Positions 139 to 17,629 are shown, counted from the stretch's first letter. The stretch is 64,000 nt of DNA from Candidatus Fermentimicrarchaeum limneticum (GCA_013426015.1 CP058998.1:445470-509469); one strand, 5' to 3'. Made by a program: numbers and translations. The notes: generated from the letters alone by a model not told the origin.

Positions 139-263
139 GGAGTGGAGATTCTCTTTGCTGATATAAAAACGTATGCTGTTTTGACGCTGCATGACTGTGT
201 GATGCAGGCTTAAATATCAAAAGAGGCATAATCTTTTATACGTTTTTAGAGTTATTAGTCGAT

Positions 264-1223
264 ATGGATTTTACTGCAATACTTGAACTTGCTCCATTTT
301 ATCTGTCTTCACTGGTCTTTCCACTTTTGCTTATTTTGTGGCAAATTGTCGGTAAAAATGAATCAAAAGTTGATTGGATTGTGCGTTTTATTTTTAGTGC
401 TTCATTCATTATCTGGGTTTATTTTTTACTTCCTTGGGCTGGAATCAATTATTATTTAAGATACTTTTTTCCAATAATGTTTTTGATTGCCAGTATTTAT
501 TCTTTTCAAAAAGTATGGATGATTCAATTAAAGACAAAACTTCCAATAAATGCAAAAAAACTTCCTTTATTTAAGAAACTTGGAATCAAAGATTATTTTT
601 ATTATGCTTGTTTACTAATAATGGCAGTTTTGTTTTTGCTTACCGCTATTATCTGCTTTAGAGCGCAGTTCTATCCTGTGGAGGCAGTGCAACTTGAGTT
701 TCCTTTGAAAGGGGGGCAATATTTTTTTGGGGAAGCAGGAAGTAATAGTGCATTAAATAGTCATCATGAATCTAAATCACAGAAATATGCGTATGACATA
801 ATTAAAATAGATTCTCTTGGATTTAGGGGAAAAGGATTTTTTTCAAGTAATTTGTCTGATTATTATATTTTTGATGAAACAGTTTATGCGCCGTGCAGTG
901 GAATTGTTTTTAAGACAAATAATTTTTCAGAGGATATGCCAATTATGCAAAGAAATGAAAAAGAACCTGGCGGGAATCATGTTATTTTGGATTGTTCGGG
1001 GGCGAGAGTTAGTCTTATTCATTTTAAAAAAGGGAGTTTGCTTGTTTTTGAAGGAGAGTTGGTTACAACTGGACAGCCCCTGGGAAAAATAGGCAACTCA
1101 GGAAGAACAACCGAACCGCATCTGCACATTCATGCAGAAAATAGGTTGGGAGAAGGAATTCCAATTGCTTTCAATGGAAAAACTTTTGTAAGAAATGACA
1201 TTTTTAACGCAGAACAAAAATGA
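264..1223 (+). CDS. Membrane-anchored M23 family metallopeptidase
   Basis: N-terminal TM helices; C-terminal APCSG.V, GNHVIL, G..V..GQ.LG.IGNSG.TTEPHLHIH M23 signature. Confidence 0.85.
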   Translation: MDFTAILELAPFYLSSLVFPLLLILWQIVGKNESKVDWIVRFIFSASFIIWVYFLLPWAGINYYLRYFFPIMFLIASIYSFQKVWMIQLKTKLPINAKKLPLFKKLGIKDYFYYACLLIMAVLFLLTAIICFRAQFYPVEAVQLEFPLKGGQYFFGEAGSNSALNSHHESKSQKYAYDIIKIDSLGFRGKGFFSSNLSDYYIFDETVYAPCSGIVFKTNNFSEDMPIMQRNEKEPGGNHVILDCSGARVSLIHFKKGSLLVFEGELVTTGQPLGKIGNSGRTTEPHLHIHAENRLGEGIPIAFNGKTFVRNDIFNAEQK

Positions 1224-1405
1224 TATCATTTGCTTTCTTGCCAAGAAAGAAAGGCGGGTATGGAGTAGGCGGTTATTTTGGAAGTAAAGGACGGGAAGCT
1301 TTTCATAAAGCCAAAGCAATAATTGTTGTTATATTCAATTTTATTTTTGCCCCTAACAAAAGTTTTAAATACTTCAACTCTAAAATTTAATTTATGGAGG
1401 AAAAA

Positions 1406-1570
1406 ATGAAAAAACATGATATTAGCCAATGGCCCATTCCTGCATGCTTATTTATGGGCATCGGAATTGGCTTACTTTTGGTAGATAAATTTCCTATTGC
1501 GATTCCTGCATTTGCACTAATCGGATTCGGACTAGGTATTTTAATCACTTCTTTAATCTCAAGAAAATAG
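1406..1570 (+). CDS. Small 2-TM membrane protein (54 aa, not in ORF track)
   Basis: MKKHDISQWPIPACLFMGIGIGLLL...GFGLGILITSLISRK; GGAGG upstream; in-frame ATG also at 1394. Confidence 0.6.
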   Translation: MKKHDISQWPIPACLFMGIGIGLLLVDKFPIAIPAFALIGFGLGILITSLISRK

Positions 1571-1596
1571 AATGATTCTCAAATTAAAGCGATTAA

Positions 1597-1640
1597 TAGT
1601 CAAATTTTACGTCGTAAAATACGTCTGGCCTCGGACGCTG
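1597..1640 (+). repeat. Double-hairpin dispersed repeat, copy A
   Basis: ATTTTAC-gtc-GTAAAAT followed by CGTCT-ggcctc-GGACG; 35/44 identical to 5777-5820. Confidence 0.7.
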
Positions 1641-1778
1641 TTCAGCAGAACGCGCTCGGCTTGTAGTCTCCGCCGCAGCAGACCCAGTTATTCAGACAGC
1701 ATCGCCACAGTTTAATCCAAAGCTAAAAAATGATTCTAAACTCCGAAAGCAAGGTAAGTGTACTCCATGGCTTTTTTA

Positions 1779-1904
1779 CTAACTCTCAACTCTTATAGGG
1801 CCGACAAGCATTTCTTCAACATCTCTGATGCAACTCCCACAATACACTAAAGACCTGTCTTTCTCAGGGTCAAACAACTTCCCACACGAGGGACATTTGT
1901 TCAT
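1779..1904 (-). CDS. Small Zn-ribbon protein (41 aa)
   Basis: MNKCPSCGKLFDPEKDRSLVYCGSCIRD...; GTGGTGA RBS upstream. Confidence 0.6.
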   Translation of the reverse strand: MNKCPSCGKLFDPEKDRSLVYCGSCIRDVEEMLVGPIRVES

Positions 1905-2040
1905 GTTGTTCACCACAAACAGTAGATATAACTTAGTTATATTTATAGCCGACAGTATACCATGGGTAACTTATTGGCGCAGATTATATCATCTAAAGCC
2001 AAAACAAGCTTAAGTATAACCTCAAACAAATTATTAGTAT

Positions 2041-2291
2041 ATGCCCATAAAGATCCAGAAAAAAGAAGGGAATTTGCGAGGAGATACTACAAAGCATATC
2101 GGGAAAAATATGGAGATAAAGTGAGGGCTTATCCTAGAGAGCATAGAAAGAAAAATATAGAAAAGGCAAGAGCATATGAAAGAGAATGGAGAGGGAGAAA
2201 CGTAGAAAGGGAGAGAGCAAAAGATAGGGAATATTACCAGAAGCATAAAGAAGATATAAGCATAGTGAAAGGGGAAGAGGTGAGCAGATGA
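2041..2291 (+). pseudogene. Frameshifted basic/charged N-terminal part of a virus-type HNH-associated protein
   Basis: ATG CCC -AT AAA GAT CCA GAA would give MPYKDPEKRRE with one extra base; R/K/E/Y-rich helix. Confidence 0.45.
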
Positions 2292-2513
2292 AAATATCTA
2301 CAGACAACGCGATGACACCAATAGAATACCAAAAGAAGAAAGCCGCACACAAGGCAGATGCAGCGAGGAAAAAACAACAGCATAAAGGCGGGGTAAAATG
2401 AGAACTCCGAAAGGTTGTGTCTACAAGGGAAAAAAGAAAAGGAGGGCGAGGTATGAGGCGTTCGTTCTACCTGACGGGACGGTTAGCACTAGGAAAATAA
2501 AAAGGGTGAGCAG

Positions 2514-2681
2514 ATGAAAAAACAGTTTGCAGTTCGGTTTGAGGCAGAGAGTAGCATTAGCTTCTATCGTTGGTTGATAAAGCACAATTTCCCTGAAGGA
2601 TATAATGTTCTATGCTTCAATTGTAATTGTTCTATTGGTGCGCATGGCTATTACCCCCATCAAAAGCCAAAGCAAGGTTGA
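2514..2681 (+). pseudogene. C-terminal fragment of phage-type HNH/Zn endonuclease
   Basis: FYRWLIKHNFPEGYNVLCFNCNCSIGAHGYYPH resembles the C-terminal YRWLIxNNFPxGxQVLCxNCN motif; upstream catalytic part absent. Confidence 0.55.
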
Positions 2682-2760
2682 TGAGTGAGAGTATGGTGGG
2701 AGGCATCTAACAGGTGGTTTTGAGTAAAAAAGGGCTGGAAGGGGCAGAGAAGGTGTTTCA

Positions 2761-3072
2761 GTGACAAAGAAACTCACAATTGACTCAGCGTTCAAGATAG
2801 AGAACATAGTAGCTTCAGCCAATTTGGGAGTGGAGCTTGACCTTTATGTTCTTGCCCAGAAAATCAGGAACATAGAGTATGAGCCAGAGCAGTTTCCAGG
2901 TGCAATACTCAAGCTGAAAGACCCAAAGGCATCTCTTCTGCTCTTCAAGAACGGCAAGGTAATATGCACAGGCTGCAAAAACGAGAGAGAAGTGAAGTAT
3001 GCCTTAGAGCGAGCAATAAAGCTACTGGCTTCCTATGCAAAACCTTTGCCAGTCCCCAAGAAGGAGGGATAG
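2761..3072 (+). CDS. tbp: Single-repeat TATA-binding-protein (TBP) domain protein
   Basis: IENIVASANLGVELDL, EYEPEQFPGAILKLKDPKASLLLFKNGKVICTG = one TBP repeat; in-frame stop at 2725 upstream. Confidence 0.85.
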   Translation: MTKKLTIDSAFKIENIVASANLGVELDLYVLAQKIRNIEYEPEQFPGAILKLKDPKASLLLFKNGKVICTGCKNEREVKYALERAIKLLASYAKPLPVPKKEG

Positions 3073-3203
3073 TTTTCCTAATACTATTCGCCCTAATTTA
3101 AAGGGTTGGTAGGTCGTGGGATTACGCCTTTGTGATTCCACCTCCAACCTACCAAAGCAATCTTAATATACTCGGACACACTATTACTCAAAGGGGTGTT
3201 TTG

Positions 3204-3539
3204 ATGAGAGGAGGTTACATCCTTGAAGGTATCATATACATTATAATCGCTATCGCATTATTTTACGTATCTAAAAATATAGACATTATCTGGTTCCTGC
3301 CGATTAATGCTCTTGGGAGTAACGCTGAAACTGCCGCTTGGATTTTCCAAATGGCGGGTGCTTTAAGTGGTGTTTTAGGATTACTATCATTTCTGTATGG
3401 GCTAATCTCATCACAACCAAAATCAAAAATTGAAATAAAAGTTGAAACAAGAGAATCCGTATATGTCCGTTGCTCAAAATGCAAAACAAAGAATGAGGAA
3501 GACGCAGAGTTTTGCAAGAAATGTGGTAATGAACTCTAA
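3204..3539 (+). CDS. 2-TM membrane protein with C-terminal zinc ribbon
   Basis: Two hydrophobic helices, CSKC...FCKKCG; start moved to ATG 3204 after GGGGTG RBS. Confidence 0.75.
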   Translation: MRGGYILEGIIYIIIAIALFYVSKNIDIIWFLPINALGSNAETAAWIFQMAGALSGVLGLLSFLYGLISSQPKSKIEIKVETRESVYVRCSKCKTKNEEDAEFCKKCGNEL

Positions 3540-3544
3540 ATATC

Positions 3545-3568
3545 AAGCCAAAGCAATCTTAATATACT
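3545..3568 (+). repeat. Junction/promoter motif AAGCCAAAGCAATCTTAATATACT (representative copy)
   Basis: Related copies at 204, 1308, 1996, 2664, 3152, 5757, 8206, 8838, 9680, 12660, 17461 (+) and 16954-16975, 17601-17611 (-). Confidence 0.85.
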
Positions 3569-3588
3569 GAAAAAGGCATAATTTAGGC

Positions 3589-4572
3589 ATGGCAGCATAC
3601 AAGAAAGCCAAGGACACTATAAGAGATAACCTTCAGGATACACCTACAGCCGACCAGTTGAAGGAAGTTTCCGCAGGTGAAAAATATGCCAAACACCTGC
3701 CTTCAAAGGAAGAAATAAAGAAAATTGCGTGGCATATTGAGAAAATCATGAAGGTGAAAGTGAGCGATGCTCTCAGAAACGGGGAGGAAGGCACGAAAGT
3801 CATCCTCGTGCAGGATTTAGAAAAACTCTTAGATGGAAGGGTTAACCAGAGGTTGGAGAGATTTGCGCGGTATCCCCTTGTCGTAGAGCAGTTGAAGCAG
3901 GAAGAGACGAAAGGGTTCGAGCCTGTGAAGCATGCGCCCTCTTATTTTGACCCTTCAGACGGCGCTGTGTACATGATAACGGATAACTTCGAAAAAATCT
4001 ACAAGGAAAAGTGCGAGGAAAAGATGATAGATGCCAATAGCGCTGAGGGCAAAAGATTTAAAAAATTCTTGGAATTCCTCTATTTTGCCCATGAGGAGAT
4101 ACACAAAACAATTGCCGAGAAAAACCCAGCCATTAGAAACAGCAGCTCGGACAGGTGGGCAGAGCTGGCGAAGGTTCTCGAGGAGCACCTTGACGATGAA
4201 AACAAGACTCCGGAAAAGGAGGAGAAGGTTGTCAAATCCATAGAGTCAATCAGGGACAAGTATGACGCCCTAGATACCTGCATGGAGGGTATTGCCCACT
4301 ACGCAGGATACCGGGTCATGTGCAAACTGGGCTACTCCAGCTGGGCCAGTACGGAATTTGGAAACATCAGGAACTACACCGGGACTGAACCCGAGACTCC
4401 TACGTATAAGGAAGTAATGGACGCTTCAAAGGGAATAAAATTCGTGGAAGCAATTCAAAGAAGGATCCATGAAAACCCAATTGCACTCATAATTGAGCAT
4501 CCGCCTACTTCCATGAAGTATATAAATAATCCTGATGAGTACCTGAAAGCCAGGGAGGAAGGGGAGATTTAG
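3589..4572 (+). CDS. Putative zinc metalloprotease (gluzincin-like)
   Basis: FAHEEIH (HExxH) plus downstream MEGIAHYAG third-ligand motif. Confidence 0.6.
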   Translation: MAAYKKAKDTIRDNLQDTPTADQLKEVSAGEKYAKHLPSKEEIKKIAWHIEKIMKVKVSDALRNGEEGTKVILVQDLEKLLDGRVNQRLERFARYPLVVEQLKQEETKGFEPVKHAPSYFDPSDGAVYMITDNFEKIYKEKCEEKMIDANSAEGKRFKKFLEFLYFAHEEIHKTIAEKNPAIRNSSSDRWAELAKVLEEHLDDENKTPEKEEKVVKSIESIRDKYDALDTCMEGIAHYAGYRVMCKLGYSSWASTEFGNIRNYTGTEPETPTYKEVMDASKGIKFVEAIQRRIHENPIALIIEHPPTSMKYINNPDEYLKAREEGEI

Positions 4573-4586
4573 TTTATTCTAAAGCT

Positions 4587-4612: not shown

Positions 4613-4667
4613 TATTCTGTTGCTTGATGGTTTAAAAATAGCAAATGAGCAATAATTAGAGTTTGTT

Positions 4668-5705
4668 ATGGTAGAAGCTACTGCAGAAAAGCCAAGGGAG
4701 GAGTCACCACTGCACAGATTCAGGGATTTGTTCAGAAGGGGTGAGAAGGAGGAAAGACCTTCCGTAGCCTCATTCCTGGAAGCCAGGATGAAGGAAGCTC
4801 CTCAGCACAAGATGCGCTTCGGAATCAATGAATACGCAGGGGAGATGAGGATCAACATAGAGCAGGGGTTCGGTTTTGACAGCAAGCGCGAAACATACGT
4901 GAAGCAGTACCTCAACCTTGTCGGCTCAATTGCGGACATGCTCAAGGATGAGATTACAGGCTATGACAGACTTTCAAAAGAAGGCAAGAAGCAGATGCAG
5001 GAGGACTTCATAGCCGGGATCTGGGGAGTCATATACGGCAATTTGGATGTAAGGTATGGAAATAACAAGCTCGGCTTTCTCTCTGAGTCGCTTGACAGGA
5101 ACCTGTGGGACTGCGACAACTCTTCCACTCTTGTCTTTGATGTTGTAAGGGAGCTGGGCATACCCGTGAAGATGATAGCGGTTCCTGGGCATGTTCTTGT
5201 AGCTACTGAGGATTTCTACTTCGAGACAACGGTGAGGGATCATGCGGCGTATTATCCTATTGAGAAGCTGCACGAGAGATACCCCAGAATACACGCGGAA
5301 ACCTCGGACCGCGAGGTCGTTAACGCGATTGCCTGGGCATCTAAAGGCCTTGCCTGCGCCAGGAAATGGGACGATGACGGCGCCATCTTTGAGTACACCA
5401 TGTCTCTCCAGCGGGATCCGAATAACGCGGATGTATACGTGAACAGGGGGATTGCCCACCAGAGAAAAGGCCAGCTAGGGGAGTCTTACAAGCGAAAAGA
5501 CGAATACAGGAAGGCCATTGACGATTACAGCAAGGCTCTTGAGCTGAACCCTGATCTCATTTCAGTCCATATGGCAAGAGGAGGTCTTTATCTCTCAGAG
5601 AAGAAGTTCTCCAGCGCTCTTGAGGATTTCCTGACTGCTGGCCGGGCTTATGCAAAGAAGTTTTACAACACCGTAAAGGATGCCTGGGCGGATGTTTCCC
5701 GGTGA
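4668..5705 (+). CDS. Transglutaminase-like (Cys-His) domain plus TPR protein
   Basis: WDCDNSS, VPGHV, YFETT; TPR motifs (DPNNADVYVNRG, AIDDYSKALELNP). Confidence 0.7.
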   Translation: MVEATAEKPREESPLHRFRDLFRRGEKEERPSVASFLEARMKEAPQHKMRFGINEYAGEMRINIEQGFGFDSKRETYVKQYLNLVGSIADMLKDEITGYDRLSKEGKKQMQEDFIAGIWGVIYGNLDVRYGNNKLGFLSESLDRNLWDCDNSSTLVFDVVRELGIPVKMIAVPGHVLVATEDFYFETTVRDHAAYYPIEKLHERYPRIHAETSDREVVNAIAWASKGLACARKWDDDGAIFEYTMSLQRDPNNADVYVNRGIAHQRKGQLGESYKRKDEYRKAIDDYSKALELNPDLISVHMARGGLYLSEKKFSSALEDFLTAGRAYAKKFYNTVKDAWADVSR

Positions 5706-5776
5706 CTTTTTTAGTCATGGTTATTTTGATTAAACTTTTCCCAAAAGTTTATTACCAAGCCGAAGCAAGCTTAAAT

Positions 5777-5820
5777 TAGTCCATTTTTACTTCGTAAAAG
5801 TCGTTTTGCCTCAAACGCTG
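5777..5820 (+). repeat. Double-hairpin dispersed repeat, copy B
   Basis: TTTTAC-ttc-GTAAAA and CGTTT-tgcctc-AAACG; directly follows the junction motif at 5757-5776. Confidence 0.7.
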
Positions 5821-5878: not shown

Positions 5879-7321
5879 ATGAGGTACTGTACAGAATGCG
5901 GGAAAAAGCTTCTCAAACCAAATTTAAAGTACTGCCCTGAATGCGGGGCTGCTCTTTCCAAGGAAACGCCTCCTCCTGTTAGTGCAGAACAGCCACCGGC
6001 TGCGCTTTCAGCCAAAGCTGGAACTGAAAAGCTGGCTGCGGAGGAACCTGCTGCCAGAAGCAGGAAACCGGGATTTCGGCCATTGCGATTTGTTCTTGTT
6101 ATGCTTTTGCTTTTTGGCATAGCGTTCTTAGTTTTGCTTGTGGGTTTACCGATTTTATTTTTCTATCTTAGCGGGGGCTTGCAGGATGGGGGTCAGGATA
6201 GTTGCGCCAATGTGACATGCAGTAACTATTGTAATGGCAATATCCGGTACTATAACGGCTTCTGCGTGGTTGGCCAGTGCCAATATTATCCCGAAGTTTG
6301 CCCCAATGGCTGCAGCAATGACTCGTGCAATTCGCCTAAACCCGTTGAACCTGAATTATCACAAATCTACATCTCCGTGAGTCATGAGAACGAAGATCCG
6401 TATTACGGCAGTTACTGCGACAAGATTAACCCCTATGACCTGAGTGTCCGTGAAGCTGTTTCAGAGGCGATTAAAAAGCATCCTGGGCGTTACAGCGTTG
6501 ACCAGCTTTTTGACATATTCGACTGGGTGAAGGCAAATGTAAGATATCAGAATGTTCCTTTGGGAGGTATTCCTTATCCAGCAGCGGAAACTTTGGTGAC
6601 AAAATCCGGGGATTGCAAGAATCAGGCGGTCTTGGTGACATCTATGATAAGGGCAATAGGAGGTACCGCGAAAGTCGTGGCAGATCCGGGATGCAGTCAC
6701 GCCTATGCAATGGTGTACGCCGGCTCGTCAGAGGCAGAGCTGAGAAATTTGTCACGGGCAATTGCCAGCCATTACGGCTCCAACGCTTCGGTGGATTATT
6801 TTAAGTATAATAACGGTACGGTGAGCTATCTTGTATATAACAACAGCATGTGGATAATCTTCGATACAGCTGCGGGAAATTATCCGGGCACTACACTTAA
6901 GAACTGCTCGGGAAACAGGACGCTCCACATGATTACAAGCTGTTTAGATTGTGTTAATTCATATCCGAATAAGCCCTATACATTCAATGATAAATGTTAC
7001 TCTCAATGCCCTTCGGGGGCGGTTACGGCCAATCAATACGCATGTAAACCCTGTCCGGCAGGTTACCAGAGTTATAATGACCAATGCCTAAAGTGCCCGA
7101 CGGGTCAGATTCTTGGCAACGATGGATTATGCTATCCGACGTGTGGAAACCCCACTACTTATTGTCAATCTGGCTCTCATTGTTATAATAATAAATGTGT
7201 AACATGTCAAGCAGGCTATATTCTGGGTACGGATGGATTATGTTATCAACCGTGTGGAAGTCCTACTACCTATTGTCAATCTGGCTCTTATTGCTCTAAT
7301 GGACGTTGCTACAGGAGCTGA
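5879..7321 (+). CDS. Zn-ribbon/TM/transglutaminase-like surface protein with Cys-rich repeats
   Basis: N-term CTEC..CPEC, TM helix, GDCKNQA/HAY/D triad, C-terminal duplicated ~37-aa Cys-rich repeat (GxDGLCY..CG.PTTYCQSGS.C). Confidence 0.8.
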   Translation: MRYCTECGKKLLKPNLKYCPECGAALSKETPPPVSAEQPPAALSAKAGTEKLAAEEPAARSRKPGFRPLRFVLVMLLLFGIAFLVLLVGLPILFFYLSGGLQDGGQDSCANVTCSNYCNGNIRYYNGFCVVGQCQYYPEVCPNGCSNDSCNSPKPVEPELSQIYISVSHENEDPYYGSYCDKINPYDLSVREAVSEAIKKHPGRYSVDQLFDIFDWVKANVRYQNVPLGGIPYPAAETLVTKSGDCKNQAVLVTSMIRAIGGTAKVVADPGCSHAYAMVYAGSSEAELRNLSRAIASHYGSNASVDYFKYNNGTVSYLVYNNSMWIIFDTAAGNYPGTTLKNCSGNRTLHMITSCLDCVNSYPNKPYTFNDKCYSQCPSGAVTANQYACKPCPAGYQSYNDQCLKCPTGQILGNDGLCYPTCGNPTTYCQSGSHCYNNKCVTCQAGYILGTDGLCYQPCGSPTTYCQSGSYCSNGRCYRS

Positions 7322-7556: not shown

Positions 7557-8078
7557 TTATACATCTGCTATACGGTGTAAGCGTTGTAATTGCCAATTAC
7601 GTTCTTTGATGATGCTATTATCTGCGTTGTTAAAATGAGCGGCGACAGCTTTGATAGCATACGCAGGAGCGCCAAAAGCATGAGTGGCAACATGGGGAGT
7701 CGCAGCTGCATGACCGGCAGCACGAGCGGCAAAACATGCTGCATCCTGGCCTGCGCCAAGCGCATCGCGGGCAGCCGCATGGGCCGCAAGTGAGACCTTA
7801 CGCACATCAGCCATTCTAAACACGCCCGTACGTACCCATTCTCGACACGCTTCAATAGCTTTGCGTGGCCTATCATCTTTAGGATACTTCTCTTCGAAAT
7901 ACGGAAGTACATGCTCGGCGCAATCTGCAGCCCAGAGCGCCAATATTTTTTGTTCGGTCTTGAAAGCTTGATGCCCTACAAGCGCTGAAGTTGGCTTGTT
8001 AAGAATCTCTACAACTGACTTGCGCACGTTAGAAACTAATGCAGTTATTTTTGTACTTTTCTGTGTTACACGTTGCAT
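7557..8078 (-). CDS. Imm5-like putative immunity protein
   Basis: LALWAADCAEHVLPYFE..PKDDRPRKAIEA...AARAAGHAAATPHV..HA...ERNWQ. Confidence 0.8.
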   Translation of the reverse strand: MQRVTQKSTKITALVSNVRKSVVEILNKPTSALVGHQAFKTEQKILALWAADCAEHVLPYFEEKYPKDDRPRKAIEACREWVRTGVFRMADVRKVSLAAHAAARDALGAGQDAACFAARAAGHAAATPHVATHAFGAPAYAIKAVAAHFNNADNSIIKERNWQLQRLHRIADV

Positions 8079-8162: not shown

Positions 8163-8255
8163 AGAAGTTATTTTGTGGTTCAAAAAACCCTCACGCTAAC
8201 TCCTGGAAGCAAGCTTAAAATACCCAAGAATATTAACTACTAACTTGGTGGACTT

Positions 8256-8822
8256 GTGAAGATCGGAAAAACATTTTATGCAGCCGACAGGAAGACATGG
8301 CACTCCTGGCTTGCCAAAAATTACAAAAAGGAGAATGAAATCTGGCTTGTCTATTACAGAAAAGCATCCGGCAAGCCGAGAATTCCCTACAATGATGCGG
8401 TTGAAGAAGCGCTGTCCTTCGGCTGGATAGACAGCATAGTGAAAAACATTGATGATGAGAGGTTCGCGCAGAGGTTCTCCCCAAGACGACCAGGCAGCCA
8501 GCTTTCGCAGATGAATAAGGAGCGCGTCAGAAAGTTGATTAAGCAAGGTAGAATGACACCCACAGGGCTTGCAGCAATTGCGCACACATTCAAAGCGGAT
8601 TCAGAAGAAGATTTTACCATTTCTGAAGATATTCTTGGTGCAATAAAGGAAAACGCAGATGCATGGGTGCATTTCCGAAGATTTCCTGAAAGTTATAAGC
8701 GGATACGTATTGCGTATATCGAAAGCCAGAGACGCCATGGTACGGAAGCATTTAAAAGGAGCCTTCAAAACTTTATCAGAATGACCGCCAGAGGCAAAAG
8801 ATTTGGGTCCGTAAGAGAATAA
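8256..8822 (+). CDS. YdeI/OmpD-associated family protein
   Basis: YNDAVEEALSFGWIDS, RFSPRRPGS.LSQMNKERV..LIKQGRMTP.G. Confidence 0.9.
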   Translation: MKIGKTFYAADRKTWHSWLAKNYKKENEIWLVYYRKASGKPRIPYNDAVEEALSFGWIDSIVKNIDDERFAQRFSPRRPGSQLSQMNKERVRKLIKQGRMTPTGLAAIAHTFKADSEEDFTISEDILGAIKENADAWVHFRRFPESYKRIRIAYIESQRRHGTEAFKRSLQNFIRMTARGKRFGSVRE

Positions 8823-8887
8823 AAGAAGATAATGGTCAAGCCAAAGCAAGCTTAAATATCGGAAAGGCATGGGCTTAGCGACAACGG

Positions 8888-9565
8888 TTACCAAACAAAC
8901 GGAAGCAAGCGATAACGTGTTTTTTGGCAATACGCCGTATACCCCTTCAGCTCGCGCTTGAGGACGTCTTCTTCATTGAAAATGCGGTAAATAATAACTG
9001 GTATCATGAGTAGGAACGGCGGGAGCGCCCAGTACGAGCCGAGCGCGATTGACGTGGCGATGTAGATAAGCAACGAGCCAAGGTACATTGGATGCCGGAT
9101 GAACGCGTACGGCCCTGTCGAAATGACTTTCTGCCCTTTTTCAACCCGAATGGTCCGCCCTGCGTAGCTGTTCTCCCTGAAAACCAGGCAGACGAGGGCA
9201 TAGCCCAAGACGACGATGGCATCTGCGGCAACAACGAACTCAAAGGGAACATTCGACCACCCGAAGCGGCGGTCGAGCCCCGGGATGAGAAATCCGATGA
9301 AGAACACGACGGACGCTATTTTTATGAGCGTCTTCTGCTTCACTTCCTTTTCTCTCGTCTTAAATCTCCGCTCCAAAAACTTCGGGTCGTTTTTCAGGAA
9401 ATACGCGAGAACAAAGGACGCCGGGACAAAAACTATCGCCATGTACACCCACGCCTGCCAGTAGTCCAGCGTGCCTGCCGGAACGAAGAGCATAATGCCT
9501 ACGACAGCAAGCGCGGCTATGAATATCAAGACGACTCGTTTCGTTAATGCAGCCTTATCCATCAT
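8888..9565 (-). CDS. Isoprenylcysteine carboxylmethyltransferase (STE14/PEMT-like) family protein
   Basis: QKVISTGPYAFIRHPMY, EEDVLKRELKGY.AYC...RYRLLPFVW. Confidence 0.9.
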   Translation of the reverse strand: MMDKAALTKRVVLIFIAALAVVGIMLFVPAGTLDYWQAWVYMAIVFVPASFVLAYFLKNDPKFLERRFKTREKEVKQKTLIKIASVVFFIGFLIPGLDRRFGWSNVPFEFVVAADAIVVLGYALVCLVFRENSYAGRTIRVEKGQKVISTGPYAFIRHPMYLGSLLIYIATSIALGSYWALPPFLLMIPVIIYRIFNEEDVLKRELKGYTAYCQKTRYRLLPFVW

Positions 9566-9722
9566 GCAGGATGCGCATTGTGTTTATAAAAACATTGCTG
9601 AGTGACCGGCAGTAAACATTTGGCTCCGAAGCTACAAAGTTCGCCAAAAAAGCAAACGGAGTATAATGCCGATTTAAACATCAAAGCAATCTTAATATAT
9701 CTCCAAACATCAAGTATGACTG

Positions 9723-11159
9723 ATGGTCTCTTTAACATTCTTCGGCGGAGTAAATGAGATAGGCGGAAACAAGATACTCCTTAAGGATAGAAAGACAAAG
9801 ATATGGCTTGACTTCGGGATGAGCTTCTCCACCTCTGCTGAGTTCTACTCTGACTTTCTCGGTCCCAAGAAGTGCAATGGAATCGGGGATTACATCGAAT
9901 TGGGGCTTGTCCCGGACATCAGGGGGCTTTACCGGGAGGACTACCTGAAGAAGATGGGGAGGGGGAAGGAGGAAAGGGAGTTTGACGGGATCCTGCTCTC
10001 CCATGCGCATCTTGACCATAATGGGCACCTGGACTTGGTGAGGCCGGACATACCGCTATACTGCTCGCAAGGCTCAAAATGCATCATGGAGATGGTTGAC
10101 GCAACGAGCGGGGGAGAGTTCCTGAGGGAAAAGGTGAGCTTCTGCTTCGTTCCAAAGAAAAGGGGGGAAGGGTTAAAACGCCTGGACAGCAGGGAGCCAG
10201 AAGGGATTGTTGAGAGGGTTGTCAAAGTCGTTGAAAAGCCGTTTAAAGTCGGAGATTTGGAAGTTACGCCAATGCCTGTGGACCATTCTCTTCCAGGAGC
10301 AATGGCATTCGCAATAGAAACAAGCGAAGGCACTGTTGTTTACTCCGGGGATTTCAGGTTCCACGGGCTTAACGAGAAGAAGACAAGGGAATTCGTTGAA
10401 AAATCTGCTGAATTTGAGCCGGCTGCATTCATCTGCGAAGGAACAAGGATTGACAGCAACAAGACAGAAACCGAGAGGGATGTATACAACACGGTGACGA
10501 AGTTCTGCAAGGACTGTGAAGCTCTCATAATCGCAAACTACCCCCTTCGTGACACTGACAGGATGACGACTTTCCTGAATGCTGCAAAGGACCATGACAG
10601 GAGGCTGGTTGTAAACCTGAAGCAGGCTTTCCTGCTTGATGCATTCGAGAAGGCAGGGCAGGAGGCTCCGAAGCTGGAGGATGTTTCCGTCTACATTCCG
10701 CGCAAGTCCTGGGGCCTGGTGACTGAGGACGTGCATCCTGACCTGGTACACGGGGATTACGAGACCTGGGAGTGCGGGTTTATTGATTCTGACAATTCGA
10801 TAACCTGCGAGGAGCTCAGGAAGAACCAGAGCGAGTATTTGTGGCACTGCGACTTCTTTGAGCTGAAGGAGCTTATTGACGTGAAACCGATGAAGGCAAG
10901 CAAGTACGTGTGGAGCGTTACCGAGCCATTTGACGTGGTGATGGAGCTTGACGAGCAGATAGTGATGAACTGGCTTGCGCATTTCAACATAACCGAGATA
11001 ACCCGGTCGCATGTTTCTGGCCATGCAAACGGGCAGGATCTGAAGGAGACGATTGACGCGATAAGGCCGAAAAAGCTCTTTGCCGTGCATACTGAGCATC
11101 CTGAGATGTTTGAGAATGTGGAAGTGGTGGAGAAGGGGAAGGAGTGCGAGGTTGGGTAG
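9723..11159 (+). CDS. Beta-CASP metallo-beta-lactamase nuclease (RNase J-like)
   Basis: GGVNEIGGN, LSHAHLDH, VDHSLPGA, YSGDFR, HVSGHA, VHTE motifs. Confidence 0.9.
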   Translation: MVSLTFFGGVNEIGGNKILLKDRKTKIWLDFGMSFSTSAEFYSDFLGPKKCNGIGDYIELGLVPDIRGLYREDYLKKMGRGKEEREFDGILLSHAHLDHNGHLDLVRPDIPLYCSQGSKCIMEMVDATSGGEFLREKVSFCFVPKKRGEGLKRLDSREPEGIVERVVKVVEKPFKVGDLEVTPMPVDHSLPGAMAFAIETSEGTVVYSGDFRFHGLNEKKTREFVEKSAEFEPAAFICEGTRIDSNKTETERDVYNTVTKFCKDCEALIIANYPLRDTDRMTTFLNAAKDHDRRLVVNLKQAFLLDAFEKAGQEAPKLEDVSVYIPRKSWGLVTEDVHPDLVHGDYETWECGFIDSDNSITCEELRKNQSEYLWHCDFFELKELIDVKPMKASKYVWSVTEPFDVVMELDEQIVMNWLAHFNITEITRSHVSGHANGQDLKETIDAIRPKKLFAVHTEHPEMFENVEVVEKGKECEVG

Positions 11160-12645: not shown

Positions 12646-12712
12646 AAACTGATCATAGTATCAAAGCAATCTTAATATACGTTAGCATACTAACTACTAA
12701 TGGGGTATCAGC

Positions 12713-13381
12713 ATGGCAATTAGACATACTCTTTTTGACTTATTAAAGTTTTCAAATCCCGAGCTTAATTATGGAGAAGGGGTAAAAAGGCTCAAAAAAC
12801 TTGAGGAGGAACTAGATTCGAAAGATATCATCTTAATTTTCTTTTTCTTTAGAGATGAACTTTATCTTATAAGTAAAGATATGTTTTCCATTGCATCAGC
12901 CAGTATTATAATTACACTTGAGGATCGACTAAAAAAGGAATTACTACTTTTATATGATGAGGGTAAACACCTGACTTCATCGAATGGAAAAGCTACAAGC
13001 CCTAAAGAAATTGAAGAATTTACCTTAAATAAACTGAGACTAGAGCTAGAAAGGCACATATCCAACAGTATGTCTGAACAAATTAAAGAGATGAATAAAT
13101 TAAGAAGAGTCGTAGTGCACACAAATATGGAAAAAGCAGTTGAGCTGAATCTTTCAGGTAGAGCACAAATACCTGATTCGCTAATGACACATGAGAGCAG
13201 GCGAGTTAGTGTAGTTTTTAATCCAGAAATACCGATTAAGATTCTAAAACTCTCACTTAAAGTTCTAAGAGAGCTGGAATCTGAGAATTTAAAAAAACAG
13301 GAACCATTTTTTGATCAAATGCTTGATGATACAATTAAGAGAAGAAACGATTTCAATTCCGGAAAAATTTATGGATACTAA
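12713..13381 (+). CDS. Possible HEPN-like helical protein
   Basis: LEDRLK...MNKLRRVVVH (Rx4H) arrangement; preceded by junction/promoter motif at 12660. Confidence 0.45.
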   Translation: MAIRHTLFDLLKFSNPELNYGEGVKRLKKLEEELDSKDIILIFFFFRDELYLISKDMFSIASASIIITLEDRLKKELLLLYDEGKHLTSSNGKATSPKEIEEFTLNKLRLELERHISNSMSEQIKEMNKLRRVVVHTNMEKAVELNLSGRAQIPDSLMTHESRRVSVVFNPEIPIKILKLSLKVLRELESENLKKQEPFFDQMLDDTIKRRNDFNSGKIYGY

Positions 13382-13680
13382 TTGTTCAAAATTACTTGAT
13401 TAAGATTATCTAGTTGTTTTCTTTTTTTCAATTTTATTAAACATTCTTCAAATTCATTAGCCTCTGCCTGACATTAGAGATTAGTTAGCACTTATAGTTT
13501 GTAAAGATAAACTGAGATACAAAGATTACTTAAGCATTGGGTCACAACTAGAGATTACACACTTCATTTTCGCAGCAATCCCTTTCTTATAGGTGCTTCA
13601 TGTGTACTTCAGCCCTTAATATTTTCATTCAAAATATGCCGGCGGTGCATTACTTCTCATAGTGCCGACTCCCAATTCCC

Positions 13681-14169
13681 TCAAAACCATGGACACATGC
13701 GAGAGTTATTTGGAAGAATGCATAGGTACATCGGAACAGTCAGTACTTCACAGGTTTCGCGCATTCGTCTATAAATCACTACTGCGCGATGATTGCCGTC
13801 CATCAGCGTGTATGGTCCTTGTTTGGATATGGCAATCAAAATACCTATTGGTGCATCGGTTGATACCTGAAAATTTTCTACTTCGGTTGAATCTGCAGCT
13901 GTGGGAACACTTCTATCCGGTGAAATCCTAATCCAAAAAGCGTCATTATTAATGACTCTTATTATGCCTTTCTGTTCAAAGTCATTTTTATCTACCGTCA
14001 CTTCGTAATATTCTCCACCCCGCATCCATTTTATTAGGGGACTTCTACACTCCAGGAAATCCTCAAATTTTGAAGGGTCGTACCCACTGTCAATCATCCT
14101 TCGTTTCTCTGATGGATGCCATTCTCTCAATACTCTTTCTTCATTGACTTGTTCTTGATTAATCTTCAT
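13681..14169 (-). CDS. ParB/Srx-like N-terminal-domain protein
   Basis: YTLMDGNHRAV motif. Confidence 0.55.
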   Translation of the reverse strand: MKINQEQVNEERVLREWHPSEKRRMIDSGYDPSKFEDFLECRSPLIKWMRGGEYYEVTVDKNDFEQKGIIRVINNDAFWIRISPDRSVPTAADSTEVENFQVSTDAPIGILIAISKQGPYTLMDGNHRAVVIYRRMRETCEVLTVPMYLCILPNNSRMCPWF

Positions 14170-14332
14170 GTTGTATCCTACTCTCCAAAAATGCTAGCCC
14201 ACATTTATCACAAATGTACAAACTTAAATCACGGTCTGAATCACCGAGATGTACTGTTTCCGGAACTTGACCTTGATCATTCTTAACTGCTGGAGTACCG
14301 CACCTTGGGCATCTAAATTCATATTTGTTCAT
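14159..14332 (-). CDS. Small Zn-ribbon protein
   Basis: CPRCG...CDKCG; GAGGTGA RBS before ATG 14332. Confidence 0.65.
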   Translation of the reverse strand: MNKYEFRCPRCGTPAVKNDQGQVPETVHLGDSDRDLSLYICDKCGLAFLESRIQHED

Positions 14333-14353
14333 GCTCTCACCTCTTAGAGTAGC

Positions 14354-14384
14354 TTGCTGCATCAAAATTTATAAGGATAAGCAG
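14354..14384 (+). repeat. 31-bp direct repeat copy 2
   Basis: TTGCTGCATCAAAATTTATAAGGATAAGCAG. Confidence 0.7.
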
Positions 14385-14398
14385 CCATAATACAAAGC

Positions 14399-14836
14399 AT
14401 GGAAAAATCAAAGTCTAAAAGTTCAAACAAAAATACTAAGCCAGATGCATATGTGAGTGAACCTTTCGGTCCGGTTACTGTAGACCAGCAAATGGCTATT
14501 ACCGATGCTTTAACGCAAAGAGTTTACGACCGCTTGAAAAAGATGGCAGAAATGAGAAGAGAAATCGCAGCGCTCAATACTGGGATTTACAATGCTGAGA
14601 CATATGAATTAATGGAGAAGGTAGTATTCATAATTGCATTCTTATTTGCTATAGTTATTGTATCTGTTTTATCCTTCCTTCTTTATATTGCACAATATGG
14701 ATATGCAGTAGCGGCTTTAGGCATTGGGATAGTCTACGTTTCATTCATAGTAGTATTCTACTCACGGCAGCGAGTTAGTATGAAAGCAGGAGCAGGGTCA
14801 TGGTTTATGGAACTTAAAAAGGAAGACATTCGCTAG
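14399..14836 (+). CDS. Hypothetical 2-TM membrane protein
   Basis: Coiled N-terminus plus two TM helices. Confidence 0.65.
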   Translation: MEKSKSKSSNKNTKPDAYVSEPFGPVTVDQQMAITDALTQRVYDRLKKMAEMRREIAALNTGIYNAETYELMEKVVFIIAFLFAIVIVSVLSFLLYIAQYGYAVAALGIGIVYVSFIVVFYSRQRVSMKAGAGSWFMELKKEDIR

Positions 14837-14856
14837 TTGTGTATAATATATCCTTA

Positions 14857-15183
14857 GTAAATCCGGTAAACCCGGCCTGCCTGCCGTCAGAGAAGGCAGA
14901 AAAGCAGGAAAAAGGCAGCCAGGCGCCGCCTAGACCGGAAAACCCCGGAGACGCAGGACCGTTCAGGCGTCAAAATCCGCTTCCTTCACAATTCCCCCAT
15001 GAAACCTGCAGAAAAAGCGGATTTACCTCGGAGAGTCTGGAAAAGTAAATCCGCTACTGCTGCCTCTCCGACGATAAGCCGACCGAAAAGCCGAGCGGAT
15101 TTACCGAATTTACCCGACGTGATTTATACACTTGCGAGAAAGAGGGATTTACCGGGTTTTATGGCAATTTACCAGCGATTTAC
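14857..15183. repeat. Cluster of (G)GATTTAC/GTAAATC(C) short repeats
   Basis: About nine copies in both orientations, including perfect 11-bp IR AGCGGATTTAC(15016)...GTAAATCCGCT(15055). Confidence 0.65.
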
Positions 15184-15193
15184 TCTCTTGCTT

Positions 15194-15238
15194 TTGATGT
15201 TTTCACCGGTATGGATTATACCCGAACTGGATATGCAG
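15194..15238 (+). repeat. 45-bp direct repeat copy 1
   Basis: 41/45 identical to 16071-16115. Confidence 0.85.
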
Positions 15239-15277
15239 AAATAGACGAACTGGTCTACAAGCTATACGGAATCACTC
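15238..15277 (+). pseudogene. C-terminal scar of a type II/IIG restriction-modification protein
   Basis: Reads EIDELVYKLYGIT, the typical C-terminus of Eco57I/TaqI-like methyltransferases. Confidence 0.55.
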
Positions 15278-15310
15278 GGCTTTAAAAAACAAAGAATTCA
15301 TAATTGACGC

Positions 15311-15670
15311 ATGGAAATCGCTCATAAGGAGGAGCCTGCAGGAGAGGGAAAGAAGCAGGAGGAGAAGCAGCCTTCCCATGTAAGGAAGCTTCTCGAGAAG
15401 ATGCACCTAAAGGAAATTGGGAAGCCGAAATCCGTAGGGCAGGCTCTTGACTGGATGAAAAGGGATGCGGAAAGCGGGAAGCTGGAAAAGATAGCCGATG
15501 GAAGCATGAGAGAGCATCAGAAGCTCCTGGCGAAGAAATTCAAGAGGCGCGAGGAGTTTTTTATGACGGCAGAGAAATACCCGAAAGGGATGGCAGAAAT
15601 AAAATGCTGGCAAAAGAACTGCAGAAAGAAGGCCAGGATCCGGCGCTCAAAGAGATTCAAGAAAGGCTGA
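15311..15670 (+). CDS. Hypothetical charged protein (3' end possibly degraded)
   Basis: TTTAAAAA box ~30 nt upstream, host-like codon use. Confidence 0.5.
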   Translation: MEIAHKEEPAGEGKKQEEKQPSHVRKLLEKMHLKEIGKPKSVGQALDWMKRDAESGKLEKIADGSMREHQKLLAKKFKRREEFFMTAEKYPKGMAEIKCWQKNCRKKARIRRSKRFKKG

Positions 15671-16070
15671 AAGGCAGCTATAACGAGCAGGTGATTATCG
15701 CTGTTGCAAGGAGATGCCTGAACACCCGCAAGACTTAGATAATTTCGCAAGCAATTGAAGATGAATATGCGGTGAGGAAGGGCATTTCCAGTGTAGAATA
15801 GCATTTAGAATCCGGTGTATCTGGCCAGGAAAAAGCGGAAAATAGCGTATTTGGCCTGCCGGAATCAGTTCACTCATGTCTCTTTCATGCTTCTTGCAAA
15901 AAATCAGGAGGCGGAACCGGTCTATCCCGGTTACTGAGGCAGCTCTTCTGCTGCCAGGCGGAAAAGCCTGAGAGCTTCTGCCTCGCAAGAGGCAAATACG
16001 CTGAAATTGAGGAAAAGAGAGCCGAATACACCGAGTTTTTTAGTGTATTTTATGCTCGAGATGAGTGAAA

Positions 16071-16115
16071 TTGATGTTTTCACCGATATGGGTTATACCC
16101 GGACTGGAAATGCAG
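16071..16115 (+). repeat. 45-bp direct repeat copy 2
   Basis: TTGATGTTTTCACCGATATGGGTTATACCCGGACTGGAAATGCAG. Confidence 0.85.
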
Positions 16116-16148
16116 GATTTATTGCGGATTGTGATGCTGGTTTTGATG

Positions 16149-16180
16149 AGAGGAACCTCGCGGTTCCCTCTACCTTCCCT
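16149..16180. repeat. REP-like hairpin AGAGGAACC-loop-GGTTCCCTCT, copy 1
   Basis: Also at 17569-17593 and 18116-18146; only the loop varies. Confidence 0.85.
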
Positions 16181-16184
16181 GAGA

Positions 16185-16229
16185 TGGACCGGGCGGGATT
16201 CGTATAAGAACCACGTCGATGGTTCTTAT
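16185..16229 (-). repeat. tRNA-Ala 3'-end duplication (18 bp) plus hairpin, att-like copy 1
   Basis: 45 bp identical to 17027-17071; first 18 bp identical to tRNA 17483-17500. Confidence 0.9.
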
Positions 16230-16301
16230 CATCTCCACGTATTCGCACCCCTACCATAAACATCACCTCGTTTTGGTTATAACGAAGCAAAGCAGAGCTT
16301 A

Positions 16302-16934
16302 TCATCGTTTCATAAATAAGAAAAAGAATTCAAATATATGCCGCATTTCGTGAATTAGCTCGTCCGATATTGGACAATCTTCACGTATAAGAATAAGCCA
16401 TTTTTTTCCCTCTTCATCTAATTGTTTTACGAATGCCCTGGCTGATTTATCAAAAGTAATCGATTTTCCATATTCTTCTGTCTCCAAATTGCTAATTTTT
16501 TGCAACTGTTCGCCAATTCTAAAGAAATCATCTTTTGTACAAACAATTGCTTTTATCTTTGGCATTTCGATTAAACCAACATTATACCCCTTATTCTTTA
16601 AATCTGATTTTAGAATTCTCCAAGCCTTTTCGATAGTTGATTTAGAGATAGGGGTAGGTTTTGATGTTAGTTGTATAAGGTTTAGTGGTAGGTTGATGTA
16701 TCCAATCATTTCATCAACATAAGGGGCCAGTATCTCTGGCTTTTCCTTTGAAACGTGCTTCATTACATCGGCGATTGCCCCTTTCTCAACATCAGAACCA
16801 GTTTTCAGAATATCAATCAGCTGCGATGCCAGTTTCTCATCCTTTTTAATGCTGTCTGCCAGAAACTGCACCAATTCCTTTGGCTTTCTTTTGGAGTTCC
16901 TTATCTCCTCACTTAAATTCATCTTCACCACCAA
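16302..16934 (-). CDS. Hypothetical, possibly chimeric (HEAT-like N-term plus HExxH C-term)
   Basis: Helical N-terminal repeat-like region; ELIHEMRH near the C-terminus. Confidence 0.55.
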   Translation of the reverse strand: MVVKMNLSEEIRNSKRKPKELVQFLADSIKKDEKLASQLIDILKTGSDVEKGAIADVMKHVSKEKPEILAPYVDEMIGYINLPLNLIQLTSKPTPISKSTIEKAWRILKSDLKNKGYNVGLIEMPKIKAIVCTKDDFFRIGEQLQKISNLETEEYGKSITFDKSARAFVKQLDEEGKKWLILIREDCPISDELIHEMRHIFEFFFLFMKR

Positions 16935-17026
16935 GAATTAGTTAACATTCGGGAGTATATTAAGATTGCTTTGGTCTTTCCTGATTATATGTAAACAAAA
17001 ACCACTCTCAGACGTAAAGCAAGGAG

Positions 17027-17071
17027 TGGACCGGGCGGGATTCGTATAAGAACCACGTCGATGGTTCTTAT
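17027..17071 (-). repeat. tRNA-Ala 3'-end duplication plus hairpin, att-like copy 2
   Basis: TGGACCGGGCGGGATTCG + T + ATAAGAACCA-cgtcga-TGGTTCTTAT. Confidence 0.9.
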
Positions 17072-17176
17072 GATTTCCTTGGATTCGAACCCCCTTATTC
17101 ATATATACCACCCCAGCATTTGTTTAGGTAAGCAATATTAATATAGTCCTCGATATTAACTACTTTTGGTGGTAAA

Positions 17177-17461
17177 GTGGATAAGAAAAGCAAACCTATA
17201 ACCAAAAAAGATAAAATGAAATTCAATCCCGAACCTGGGTTTATACTGCTGCTGATATTTTTTGTATTTATTGGTATGTTAGTAGAAAAGACAGGCGTAT
17301 CCTTATTCATACCTCTAATTTTTTGGTTATTTGCCCTGATAGTTTACAAACAAGGACGTATATTTGGTATTCACGACAATGAGAAAGCAAGGCGTTGGGC
17401 GGTATATCTCGCCATTGCAGGGGTGTTCTTATTCTTTTGGGAATTTAGAGTTTGTTGTTAA
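17177..17461 (+). CDS. Small 3-TM membrane protein
   Basis: Hydrophobic helices; GGTGG RBS. Confidence 0.6.
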   Translation: MDKKSKPITKKDKMKFNPEPGFILLLIFFVFIGMLVEKTGVSLFIPLIFWLFALIVYKQGRIFGIHDNEKARRWAVYLAIAGVFLFFWEFRVCC

Positions 17462-17482
17462 AGCCAGAGCAATCTTAATAGA

Positions 17483-17567
17483 TGGACCGGGCGGGATTCG
17501 AACCCGCGGCCTCTACCTTTTCCGCGGAAGATGCGAAGGTAGCGATCTACCACTGATCTACCGGCCC
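17483..17567 (-). tRNA. tRNA-Ala(CGC) with 13-nt intron at 37/38 (intron 17519-17531)
   Basis: GGGCCGG/CCGGTCC acceptor with G3:U70, CTACC-TTCGCA-[TCTTCCGCGGAAA]-A-GGTAG, GGTTCGAATCC T-arm. Confidence 0.95.
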
Positions 17568-17568
17568 A

Positions 17569-17593
17569 AGAGGAACCTCTCGGTTCCCTCTAC
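17569..17593. repeat. REP-like hairpin copy 2, abutting the tRNA 5' end
   Basis: AGAGGAACC-tctc-GGTTCCCTCTAC. Confidence 0.85.
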
Positions 17594-17629
17594 ACTCCAA
17601 TGCTTCGGCTTCAAGGTTACATTTATCCA

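Follow-up and report, generated by a model that had tools for sequence, protein, structure and literature searches.

A promoter-like motif forms the joints between shuffled gene modules in accessory islands of one genus of Micrarchaeota

Archaeal integrative elements that target tRNA genes insert at a tRNA, are marked by direct repeats of the tRNA 3' end and carry their own integrase. In T4-type phages, recombination between the repeats called promoter-early stem-loop (PeSL) cassettes has been proposed to shuffle modules and to transfer genes (PMC2839356, PMC4122927). Two other systems invite comparison: integrons, including those of archaea (PMC9668308), and reused or 'mobile' prokaryotic promoters (PMC3575422). 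Here we describe a 22-nt motif from Candidatus Fermentimicrarchaeum limneticum, whose genome comprises 1.204 Mb in two contigs with 48.5% GC. The window is a stretch of 64,000 nucleotides (G000:C1:445470-509469; coordinates without this prefix count from its first letter), in which an initial annotation had proposed a promoter-bearing recombination site used to stack accessory genes. Our data show that the motif is the joint between shuffled modules and that it is confined to accessory and mobile regions of one Micrarchaeota genus. From the combined analyses we lean, by a modest degree, towards a PeSL-like, genus-specific mobilome promoter cassette that would double as portable homology for module exchange.

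The system functions like PeSLs but is distinct from them. As with PeSLs, short conserved promoter repeats lie between small accessory or non-essential genes in plastic regions, and the repeats delimit the stretches inserted, deleted or replaced between relatives. The differences are several. The copies described here reside in a cellular archaeal chromosome (1.2 Mb, with ribosomal and tRNA genes) and its integrated elements rather than in a phage, and the promoter has the archaeal TFB recognition element (BRE)/TATA layout, whereas PeSL promoters are of the sigma-70 type. The stem-loop is inconstant, with a hairpin upstream of the motif in three of six folded junctions (3115-3141, 5731-5751 and 12627-12641). 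Mini-circles are a feature of PeSLs, whereas our analysis of joints covered assembled contigs, and exchange here crosses species whose core DNA is 67-80% identical. Integrons likewise hold co-oriented, single, unrelated accessory genes of varied composition, with one conserved site per gene, boundaries inside the site and cargo common across taxa. In contrast to integrons, no IntI adjoins the array and no attC hairpin is present, for which the 5-15 nt between stop codon and motif (three cases) leave no room. Integron cassettes are mostly promoterless, carry their site 3' and are expressed from Pc, whereas here the site is 5' and promoter-bearing, and the start codon of each module follows a TATA-bearing motif of its own by 21-34 nt. 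The array is not an integron: IntI and attC were both looked for and not found. Reused promoters are similar in that highly alike promoters precede non-homologous genes, but the present copies form arrays, occur in one genus only and are nucleotide-precise at the points of exchange. Finally, the island resembles tRNA-targeting elements in lying against a tRNA gene and in having direct repeats of the tRNA 3' end on either side, but it lacks an integrase, its segments are tiny and most of its inner boundaries are the promoter motif. We found no account of such a system in archaea in the open-access literature.

The first 18 kb of the window hold all nine matches to AAGCC(A/G)AAGCAA(T/G)CTTAA with at most three mismatches (1996, 2664, 3149, 3545, 5757, 8838, 9678, 16960 on the minus strand, and 17461), against 0.46 expected; none of 100 shuffles reached nine. 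A position weight matrix (PWM) built from 24 genome-wide matches to this pattern added weaker copies at 8201 and 12658. The full motif, AAGCCAAAGCAA(T/G)CTTAA(A/T)ATA, consists of a variable AAGCC head, an invariant core CAAAGCAA (positions 5-12) and a BRE/TATA part, (T/G)CTTAA(A/T)ATA. Three half-motifs were read directly, a right half at 208-217 and left halves at 1308-1319 and 17601-17611(-), and they break at about position 12/13. Every site of the initial annotation proved real by pattern search, PWM or direct reading, as did the 21 nt shared by copies 3149 and 3545 (CCAAAGCAATCTTAATATACT) and the left-half-only sites at 1308 and 17601(-). Copy 2664, which it had placed with the latter, keeps AAGCCAAAGCAAGGTT and has lost its TATA part relative to homologues in three other genomes. 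Stop codons indeed lie 5-15 nt 5' of the motif at 3539/3545, 8822/8838 and 12645/12658, and the described variation in composition is visible as a GC content of 0.33 to 0.51 among the 1-kb bins of the array.

A genome-wide PWM scan of core and variable regions, as the initial annotation had suggested, returned 25 copies of at least 20 bits. Twelve lie in island 1 (G000:C1:441.1-463.0 kb), which ends at the window's tRNA, and eight in island 2 (551.1-566.3 kb); the two islands, accessory in content, make up ~3% of the genome and hold 20 of the 25. Outside them, the region of one strong copy encodes two tyrosine recombinases, a Prim-Pol/MCM protein and a resolvase fragment, two copies adjoin a TraG/VirB4-like ATPase and a ParE toxin, and two are degenerate (196561 and 793396). 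The motif's 18-mer, with one mismatch allowed, occurs in all five congeners (8-20 copies each), in none of four other genera of the family and as a single match in one of 31 more distant relatives; a reversed-pattern control gave no match in any genome. Across ~186,000 species' genomes the exact 19-mer has 44 loci: 20 in five Micrarchaeota metagenome-assembled genomes (MAGs), two in Methanomethylovorans MAGs and 22 singletons in unrelated bacteria, about the number expected by chance. Metagenomes yielded 63 further loci, many with 2-6 copies per 5 kb. In the two Methanomethylovorans MAG contigs (L039, L041) and in one metagenome contig (L083) the 19-mer precedes a conserved local gene and is most likely a coincidental promoter. 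A single match in the viral collection is at chance level. None of these sequences, the metagenome contig included, has any other similarity to this genome, and we regard the Methanomethylovorans and viral matches as coincidental for that reason.

By geometry and orientation the motif looks like an archaeal BRE/TATA promoter, as the initial annotation had supposed of its right half. Among 90 copies from the genus, 40 have an open reading frame (ORF) of at least 50 aa with a positive coding score starting within 120 nt, and 29 of these begin 21-39 nt past the last base of the TATA part, compared with 2 of 90 in the opposite-orientation control. Start codons cluster at 21-25 nt (18 cases) and at 31-34 nt (10 cases). 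Archaeal TATA boxes are centred near -26/-27, and the shorter spacing therefore points to leaderless mRNAs and the longer to leaders of ~8-11 nt; the latter carry GGTGG/GGTGA-like Shine-Dalgarno sequences. We infer that the motif is transcriptionally active. It differs from the ordinary promoter of this genome. Gene calling by simple codon usage gave 1244 genes genome-wide, and the 8-mers enriched upstream of them are TATA boxes of a generic kind (TTTAAATA, TTTATAAA and TTAATATA), which the TATA part of the motif matches. When upstream regions were anchored on TATA, 19 from the islands gave CCAAAGCAATCTTAATATAC and 178 from elsewhere showed a weak A bias only, with no conserved left half. The core gene for the TATA-binding protein (TBP) likewise has a generic TATA and no motif. 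Conservation of the left half hints at a specific binding protein; a specialised TFB was ruled out, as the genome has a single TFB gene.

We examined how homology between loci behaves at the motif by extending 204 non-redundant copies outward from it (this genome, genus loci, and genome-collection, viral and metagenome loci). Homology of at least 40 nt downstream is shared by 73 pairs; it ends 0-3 nt upstream of the motif in 64 of them and at 11-39 nt in three, and six are homologous on both sides. Likewise, in 25 of the 34 pairs homologous on the left it ends 0-3 nt past the motif. When 300 nt of the non-homologous side were aligned by Smith-Waterman and judged against a null of 400 random pairs, similarity was seen in a single pair among the 55 usable ones and a single pair among the 25. 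The distinct upstream contexts number 8, 5, 7, 7, 5 and 5 for downstream families of 8, 7, 7, 7, 5 and 5 members, respectively, and those downstream of upstream families are similarly varied. For example, the 3' end of YdeI, followed by 15 nt and the motif, continues in three different ways in three genomes: into a class-B remnant and a reversed ICMT gene here, into another motif and gene in one congener, and into a class-C leader in the third. BLAST blocks of at least 84% identity and 100 nt, with ends at contig ends dropped, have 22 unique boundaries, of which 8 fall within 6 nt of the motif, a zone that covers 2.4% of the sequence (binomial 3e-8). Pairs homologous on the left show 88-100% identity at positions 1-4, where the background is 57-82%, and no more than background identity at positions 13-14 and 19-22. 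For pairs homologous on the right, identity is 89-100% at positions 19-22 (background 49-67%) and close to background at positions 1-3. The head of the motif thus travels with the left flank and its end with the right flank, placing the exchange within the invariant core, CAAAGCAA. Together these results place the breakpoints of gain, loss and replacement between genomes within 0-3 nt of the motif, and half-motifs correspond to breaks in its middle. The idea of the initial annotation survives, since breakpoints coincide with the motif and the motif is not equally frequent before core genes.

Modules have recently moved between species, because they are 84-100% identical to those of congeners, compared with 67-80% in long blocks of the adjacent 19.7 kb of core genes (two short core pieces reach 83-84% and one 130-bp piece 88%). 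In a BLAST search of window 1-18200 against the five congeners, every gene matched on its own, and both the contig and the gene order varied. Identities were 100% and 96% for the M23 module, 95-98% for the Imm5-like, 92-95% for TBP, 91% and 84% for beta-CASP, 91% for transglutaminase, 86-87% for YdeI and 85% for the tetratricopeptide repeat (TPR) module. Contigs from four other sediment studies likewise hold single modules with unlike flanks (204/208-1226/1236, 2664-3053, 3695-4585 and 9690-11157); 12.1-15.8 kb of the window has little or no cover in them. Four joints in such contigs (232->8838, 232->17461, 234->3545 and 1650->3543) were considered as circles or deletions and rejected, since their short side of 22-29 nt is the motif itself.

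A second repeat also bounds modules. Rfam confirms the tRNA that forms the right border of the island, 17483-17567(-) (RF00005, 61.8 bits), and by eye it is an alanine tRNA with G3:U70, anticodon CGC and a 13-nt intron; ARAGORN labelled it Lys(ctt) or Leu(caa), depending on the run, and the end coordinate that it gives overlaps the motif by 2 nt. The motif copy at 17461..17482(+) abuts its 3' end and points into it, as described before. This is the only one of 43 tRNAs that the motif abuts. The junction is kept in one congener, and a duplicate that includes 17 nt of the tRNA stands 20 kb further left (G000:C1:442872). The tRNA-Ala 3'-end 18-mer has five copies (G000:C1:442894, 443461, 461654, 462496 and 462952). 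The outermost are direct repeats of 17-18 nt that bracket island 1, and three lie inside. These copies bound single-gene modules and coincide with indels in other samples: two contigs, with the joints 16149->17480 and 16113->17482, lack the last two modules. Between the same flanks one congener has ~3.6 kb, compared with ~22 kb here.

We found no integrase or recombinase family among the ORFs of the islands and no attC in window 1-18200, in agreement with the initial annotation. The genome search that it had advised identified five tyrosine-recombinase loci and one resolvase fragment. PF00589 matches lie at 341-415 kb, 621 kb and 632 kb and none at 441-463 or 551-566 kb; those at 341-415 kb are three copies each of two match kinds inside a 26-kb tandem repeat. 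With the genome's own five recombinases as tblastn queries, a homologue was present in 1 of 139 motif-flanking loci (544 kb). Reading and junction folding revealed no dyad symmetry or hairpin in the motif, which is unpaired in the centroid structures of all eight folded junction strands; six z-scores were +0.15 to +1.86, and the other two (-1.78 and -2.81) are due to flanking hairpins. The class-B protein of the array was rejected as a candidate recombinase: it has a conserved HExxH and its relatives are only Micrarchaeota-like proteins. The tandem repeat lies outside the window, at G000:C1:340990-418990, and consists of a 25,989-bp unit repeated 3.00 times with 20 mismatches in a 52-kb self-comparison. 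It contains a tyrosine recombinase gene and a predicted tRNA whose intron is 117 nt long, and shares two segments of 1.4-1.6 kb at 94-97% identity with the 25.5-kb second contig. It may be a tandem integrated element or an assembly artefact of an episome.

In the reading that we favor, a promoter cassette would head the single-gene modules of accessory islands and plasmid-like elements, and its copies would act as portable homology because each module carries the same ~22 nt. A crossover inside the invariant core would join any upstream module to any downstream module, and the segment from copy to copy could then be deleted, inserted, replaced or moved to the array of another species. We infer that exchange proceeds by general short-homology recombination and not by a dedicated enzyme; repeat-mediated recombination is favored because a second repeat behaves alike, no recombinase is linked and the motif has no hairpin or dyad. 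Several observations weigh against this reading. For recombination of the RadA type, 22 nt, of which 8 form the invariant core, make a short stretch, and the narrow crossover zone (positions 5-12) also fits a fixed cleavage point. A novel enzyme would escape a tblastn search whose queries are the genome's own recombinases. Fourteen of the 22 block ends lie off the motif, with many 3' ends at a stop codon. The putative promoter role is argued from geometry, and the left half is far more conserved than usual BRE regions. The other 50 of the 90 genus copies lack an ORF of at least 50 aa within 120 nt and are followed by short ORFs, conserved non-coding leaders, reversed genes or cut loci. About 5 of the 20 island copies (8838, 17461, G000:C1:551062, 558717 and 564465) have no sense gene to serve, as they face a reversed gene or a tRNA.

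Many of these points would be explained by a dedicated site-specific system, integron-like, in which a recombinase from elsewhere or from a helper recognises the left half and exchanges strands in CAAAGCAA. Breakpoints precise to 0-3 nt, a crossover confined to positions 5-12, half-motifs broken near 12/13, a left half conserved beyond the needs of a promoter and copies without a sense gene are all consistent with it, and an enzyme could come from the genome's five tyrosine-recombinase loci and resolvase fragment or be supplied in trans by plasmid-like elements that carry copies. We nevertheless consider such a system unlikely, given that the motif lacks dyad symmetry and hairpin, that the islands lack a recombinase and a single flanking locus among 139 has a homologue, that the unrelated tRNA-Ala 18-mer also bounds modules and that the invariant core is the longest identical run, where homologous crossovers fall anyway. 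A wider version of the idea, a DPANN cassette platform without integrase or with an unknown recombinase, seems doubtful to us: cassettes would be captured, reordered and traded at a promoter-embedded site with the core CAAAGCAA, and the platform's own mobile single-domain TBP paralogue may read their promoters. What stands of the recombination site first proposed is its breakpoints at the motif, its accessory location and its promoter-like character, and dedicated integron-like machinery is unsupported.

If the motif were an ordinary strong promoter or regulon signal without a role in recombination, breakpoints would merely fall in short intergenic spacers. Its promoter-like spacing and orientation, the simple BRE/TATA layout with a single TFB, conserved promoter-gene pairs such as that of beta-CASP in three genomes, and the many 3' block ends at stop codons would be accounted for. 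However, homology ends 0-3 nt from both motif edges rather than being scattered in the spacers, three unrelated modules follow YdeI and the motif in three genomes, and the TATA variant tracks the downstream module as the head tracks the upstream one. Half-motifs, intact copies facing reversed genes and a tRNA, and the lack of the motif at core promoters also argue against it, and we disfavor this explanation as improbable. Serial integrase-mediated integration of small elements at the tRNA-Ala 3' end, with the motif as the promoter type of these elements, would explain the five 18-mer copies that bracket the island and its last two modules, the ~3.6 kb of the congener in place of ~22 kb, the contigs from other samples without 16150-17480 and the motif copies in integrase-bearing elements elsewhere. 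This too appears rather improbable: the island neither contains nor adjoins an integrase (those closest to it are at 393 kb and 621 kb), an autonomous element would not fit into the 456-842 bp between tRNA-end repeats, motifs rather than tRNA fragments form most of the internal boundaries, island 2 has no flanking tRNA, and the direct repeats are imperfect outside a 17-nt core.

The array begins with a partial motif at 204..217(+), of which the right half (GCTTAAATAT, 208-217) remains; after it, and before the M23 gene, comes a remnant of the class-B leader. In other samples, contigs break at this site, in pieces that begin at 204 or 208, and homology blocks begin at 208 and 221. The membrane M23 peptidase module (264..1223, +; PF01551) stands in different contexts in the two congeners that share it. 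The left half AAGCCAAAGCAA follows at 1308..1319(+), and window 1261-1319 matches the upstream flank and left half of one full congener copy. Next come a copy of 25.3 bits with a degenerate TATA part (1996..2017, +; pattern and PWM) and the copy without TATA part at 2664..2685(+), intact in its homologues L018, L026 and L031. The latter heads the module of a single-domain TBP paralogue of the mobile type (2761..3072, +; PF00352, 1.8e-29), which every one of the five congeners shares; one congener contig holds two copies.

The genome has three TBP genes, all single-domain and 100-106 aa long (window 2761-3072, G000:C1:1045410-1045655 and 893905-894144). One is a core gene and two are of the mobile type, one of these in the array; no two-domain TBP was found in the genome. 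Among 30 relatives from the order and class, 29 have a TBP match and 28 have single-domain frames only, of which 27 are full frames of 100-145 aa and one is a cut match of 51 aa; one relative has a two-domain frame of 192 aa. A lineage with a presumed homodimer as its only TBP would bear on the evolution of this protein; published monopartite TBPs coexist with full-length TBPs (PMC3597702).

Further along the array, the copy at 3149..3170(+) precedes the ATG of a Zn-ribbon membrane protein (3204) by 33 nt, and a perfect copy of 36.2 bits at 3545..3566(+) is followed by the class-B leader, with an ATG 22 nt 3' (both by pattern and PWM). The class-B module (3589..4572, +) encodes an HExxH protein of a family confined to Micrarchaeota relatives. 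Its HExxH is invariant (H168, E169 and H172) among only ~10 related proteins of Micrarchaeota-like contigs, and the promoter and leader GCTTAAATATyGRAAARGGCATAATTTAGGCATG are conserved even where coding identity is 72%. Window 4596-4650 holds a degenerate motif variant preceded by the palindrome GTAACCATAGTTAC, whose intact form TAACCATGGTTACAAAGCAATCTTAA occurs at three congener loci and one metagenome locus. The TPR protein module (4668..5705, +; Pfam) lies within a congener block, 4631-5751, that ends at the next motif. That copy (5757..5778, +; 30.5 bits, pattern and PWM) is followed by the conserved class-C leader. The leader occurs in the window at 5779-5830, 1597-1650 and 7361-7444 and in at least 12 contexts across genomes, and consists of the palindrome TTTTACGTCGTAAAA at the expected transcription start site followed by GCCTCGGACGCTGT. 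It could be an operator or a small RNA, and it has no Rfam match; in window 1-20000 Rfam gave no match besides the tRNA. The class-D module spans ~180 nt between two motif copies (G000:C1:564290-564465) and has seven copies in five upstream contexts: on the strand opposite the motif it encodes a very basic ORF of 37 aa with its own generic TATA 22 nt before the ATG, and the stop codon, read by eye, overlaps the motif's TATA part.

The Zn-ribbon and transglutaminase-like module (5879..7321, +; Pfam, within its congener block) is followed by the Imm5-like immunity protein module on the minus strand (7557..8078; PF21805, 5e-41), shared with two congeners. A weak copy of 12.1 bits with its right part intact (8201..8222, +; PWM) lies 33 nt before the YdeI/OmdA gene (8256..8822, +; Pfam), and homology blocks begin inside it, at 8207 and 8215. 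The copy at 8838..8859(+; pattern) faces the 3' end of the reversed ICMT/PEMT methyltransferase module (8888..9565, -; Pfam), as the initial annotation had stated. At 9678..9699(+; PWM) a copy precedes the beta-CASP ATG by 23 nt, a pairing kept in two congeners, and heads the beta-CASP/RNase J-like hydrolase module (9723..11159, +; family searches). Among the functions originally assigned, Pfam supports M23, Imm5_like, OmdA/YdeI and ICMT/PEMT, and the candidate ORFs for the 'HEPN-like' module have no family match. Window 11200-14400 is AT-rich (GC 0.33-0.37), has four ORFs without family match and almost no match in the five congeners, and looks like foreign DNA recently acquired within the array. 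Searches of the islands for virus and plasmid hallmarks with PHROGs and NCBIfam gave only generic matches (M23/endolysin-like and metal hydrolase).

Towards the right border, the copy at 12658..12679(+; PWM) precedes an ATG (12713) by 33 nt. The tRNA-Ala 3'-end 18-mer, TGGACCGGGCGGGATTCG, marks a module boundary at 16185..16202(+), and its second copy lies at 17027..17044(+). Between them, the minus-strand motif at 16956..16977 (pattern and PWM) is followed 21-24 nt downstream by the start of a 210-aa gene. Beyond the abutting copy at 17461 (pattern and PWM) and the intron-bearing tRNA lies the left half AAGCCGAAGCA at 17601..17611(-). A hairpin repeat, GAGGAACC(n3-5)GGTTCCCTC followed by TAC, has three copies at 16150-16170, 17570-17590 and 18117-18136, one of them directly upstream of the tRNA 5' end.

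The genomes of DPANN archaea are tiny and the organisms depend on hosts; little is understood of the ways in which they gain and replace accessory genes. In this genus, one 22-nt promoter sequence would both equip acquired genes for expression and mark the points of their exchange. Among the cargo are proteases, immunity proteins, surface proteins and a TBP paralogue. Modules that move between species much faster than the core diverges would offer a concrete mechanism for gene flux in uncultured symbiotic archaea. If true, the principle known from T4-type phages, that regulatory cassettes serve as recombination modules, would extend to cellular archaeal chromosomes.

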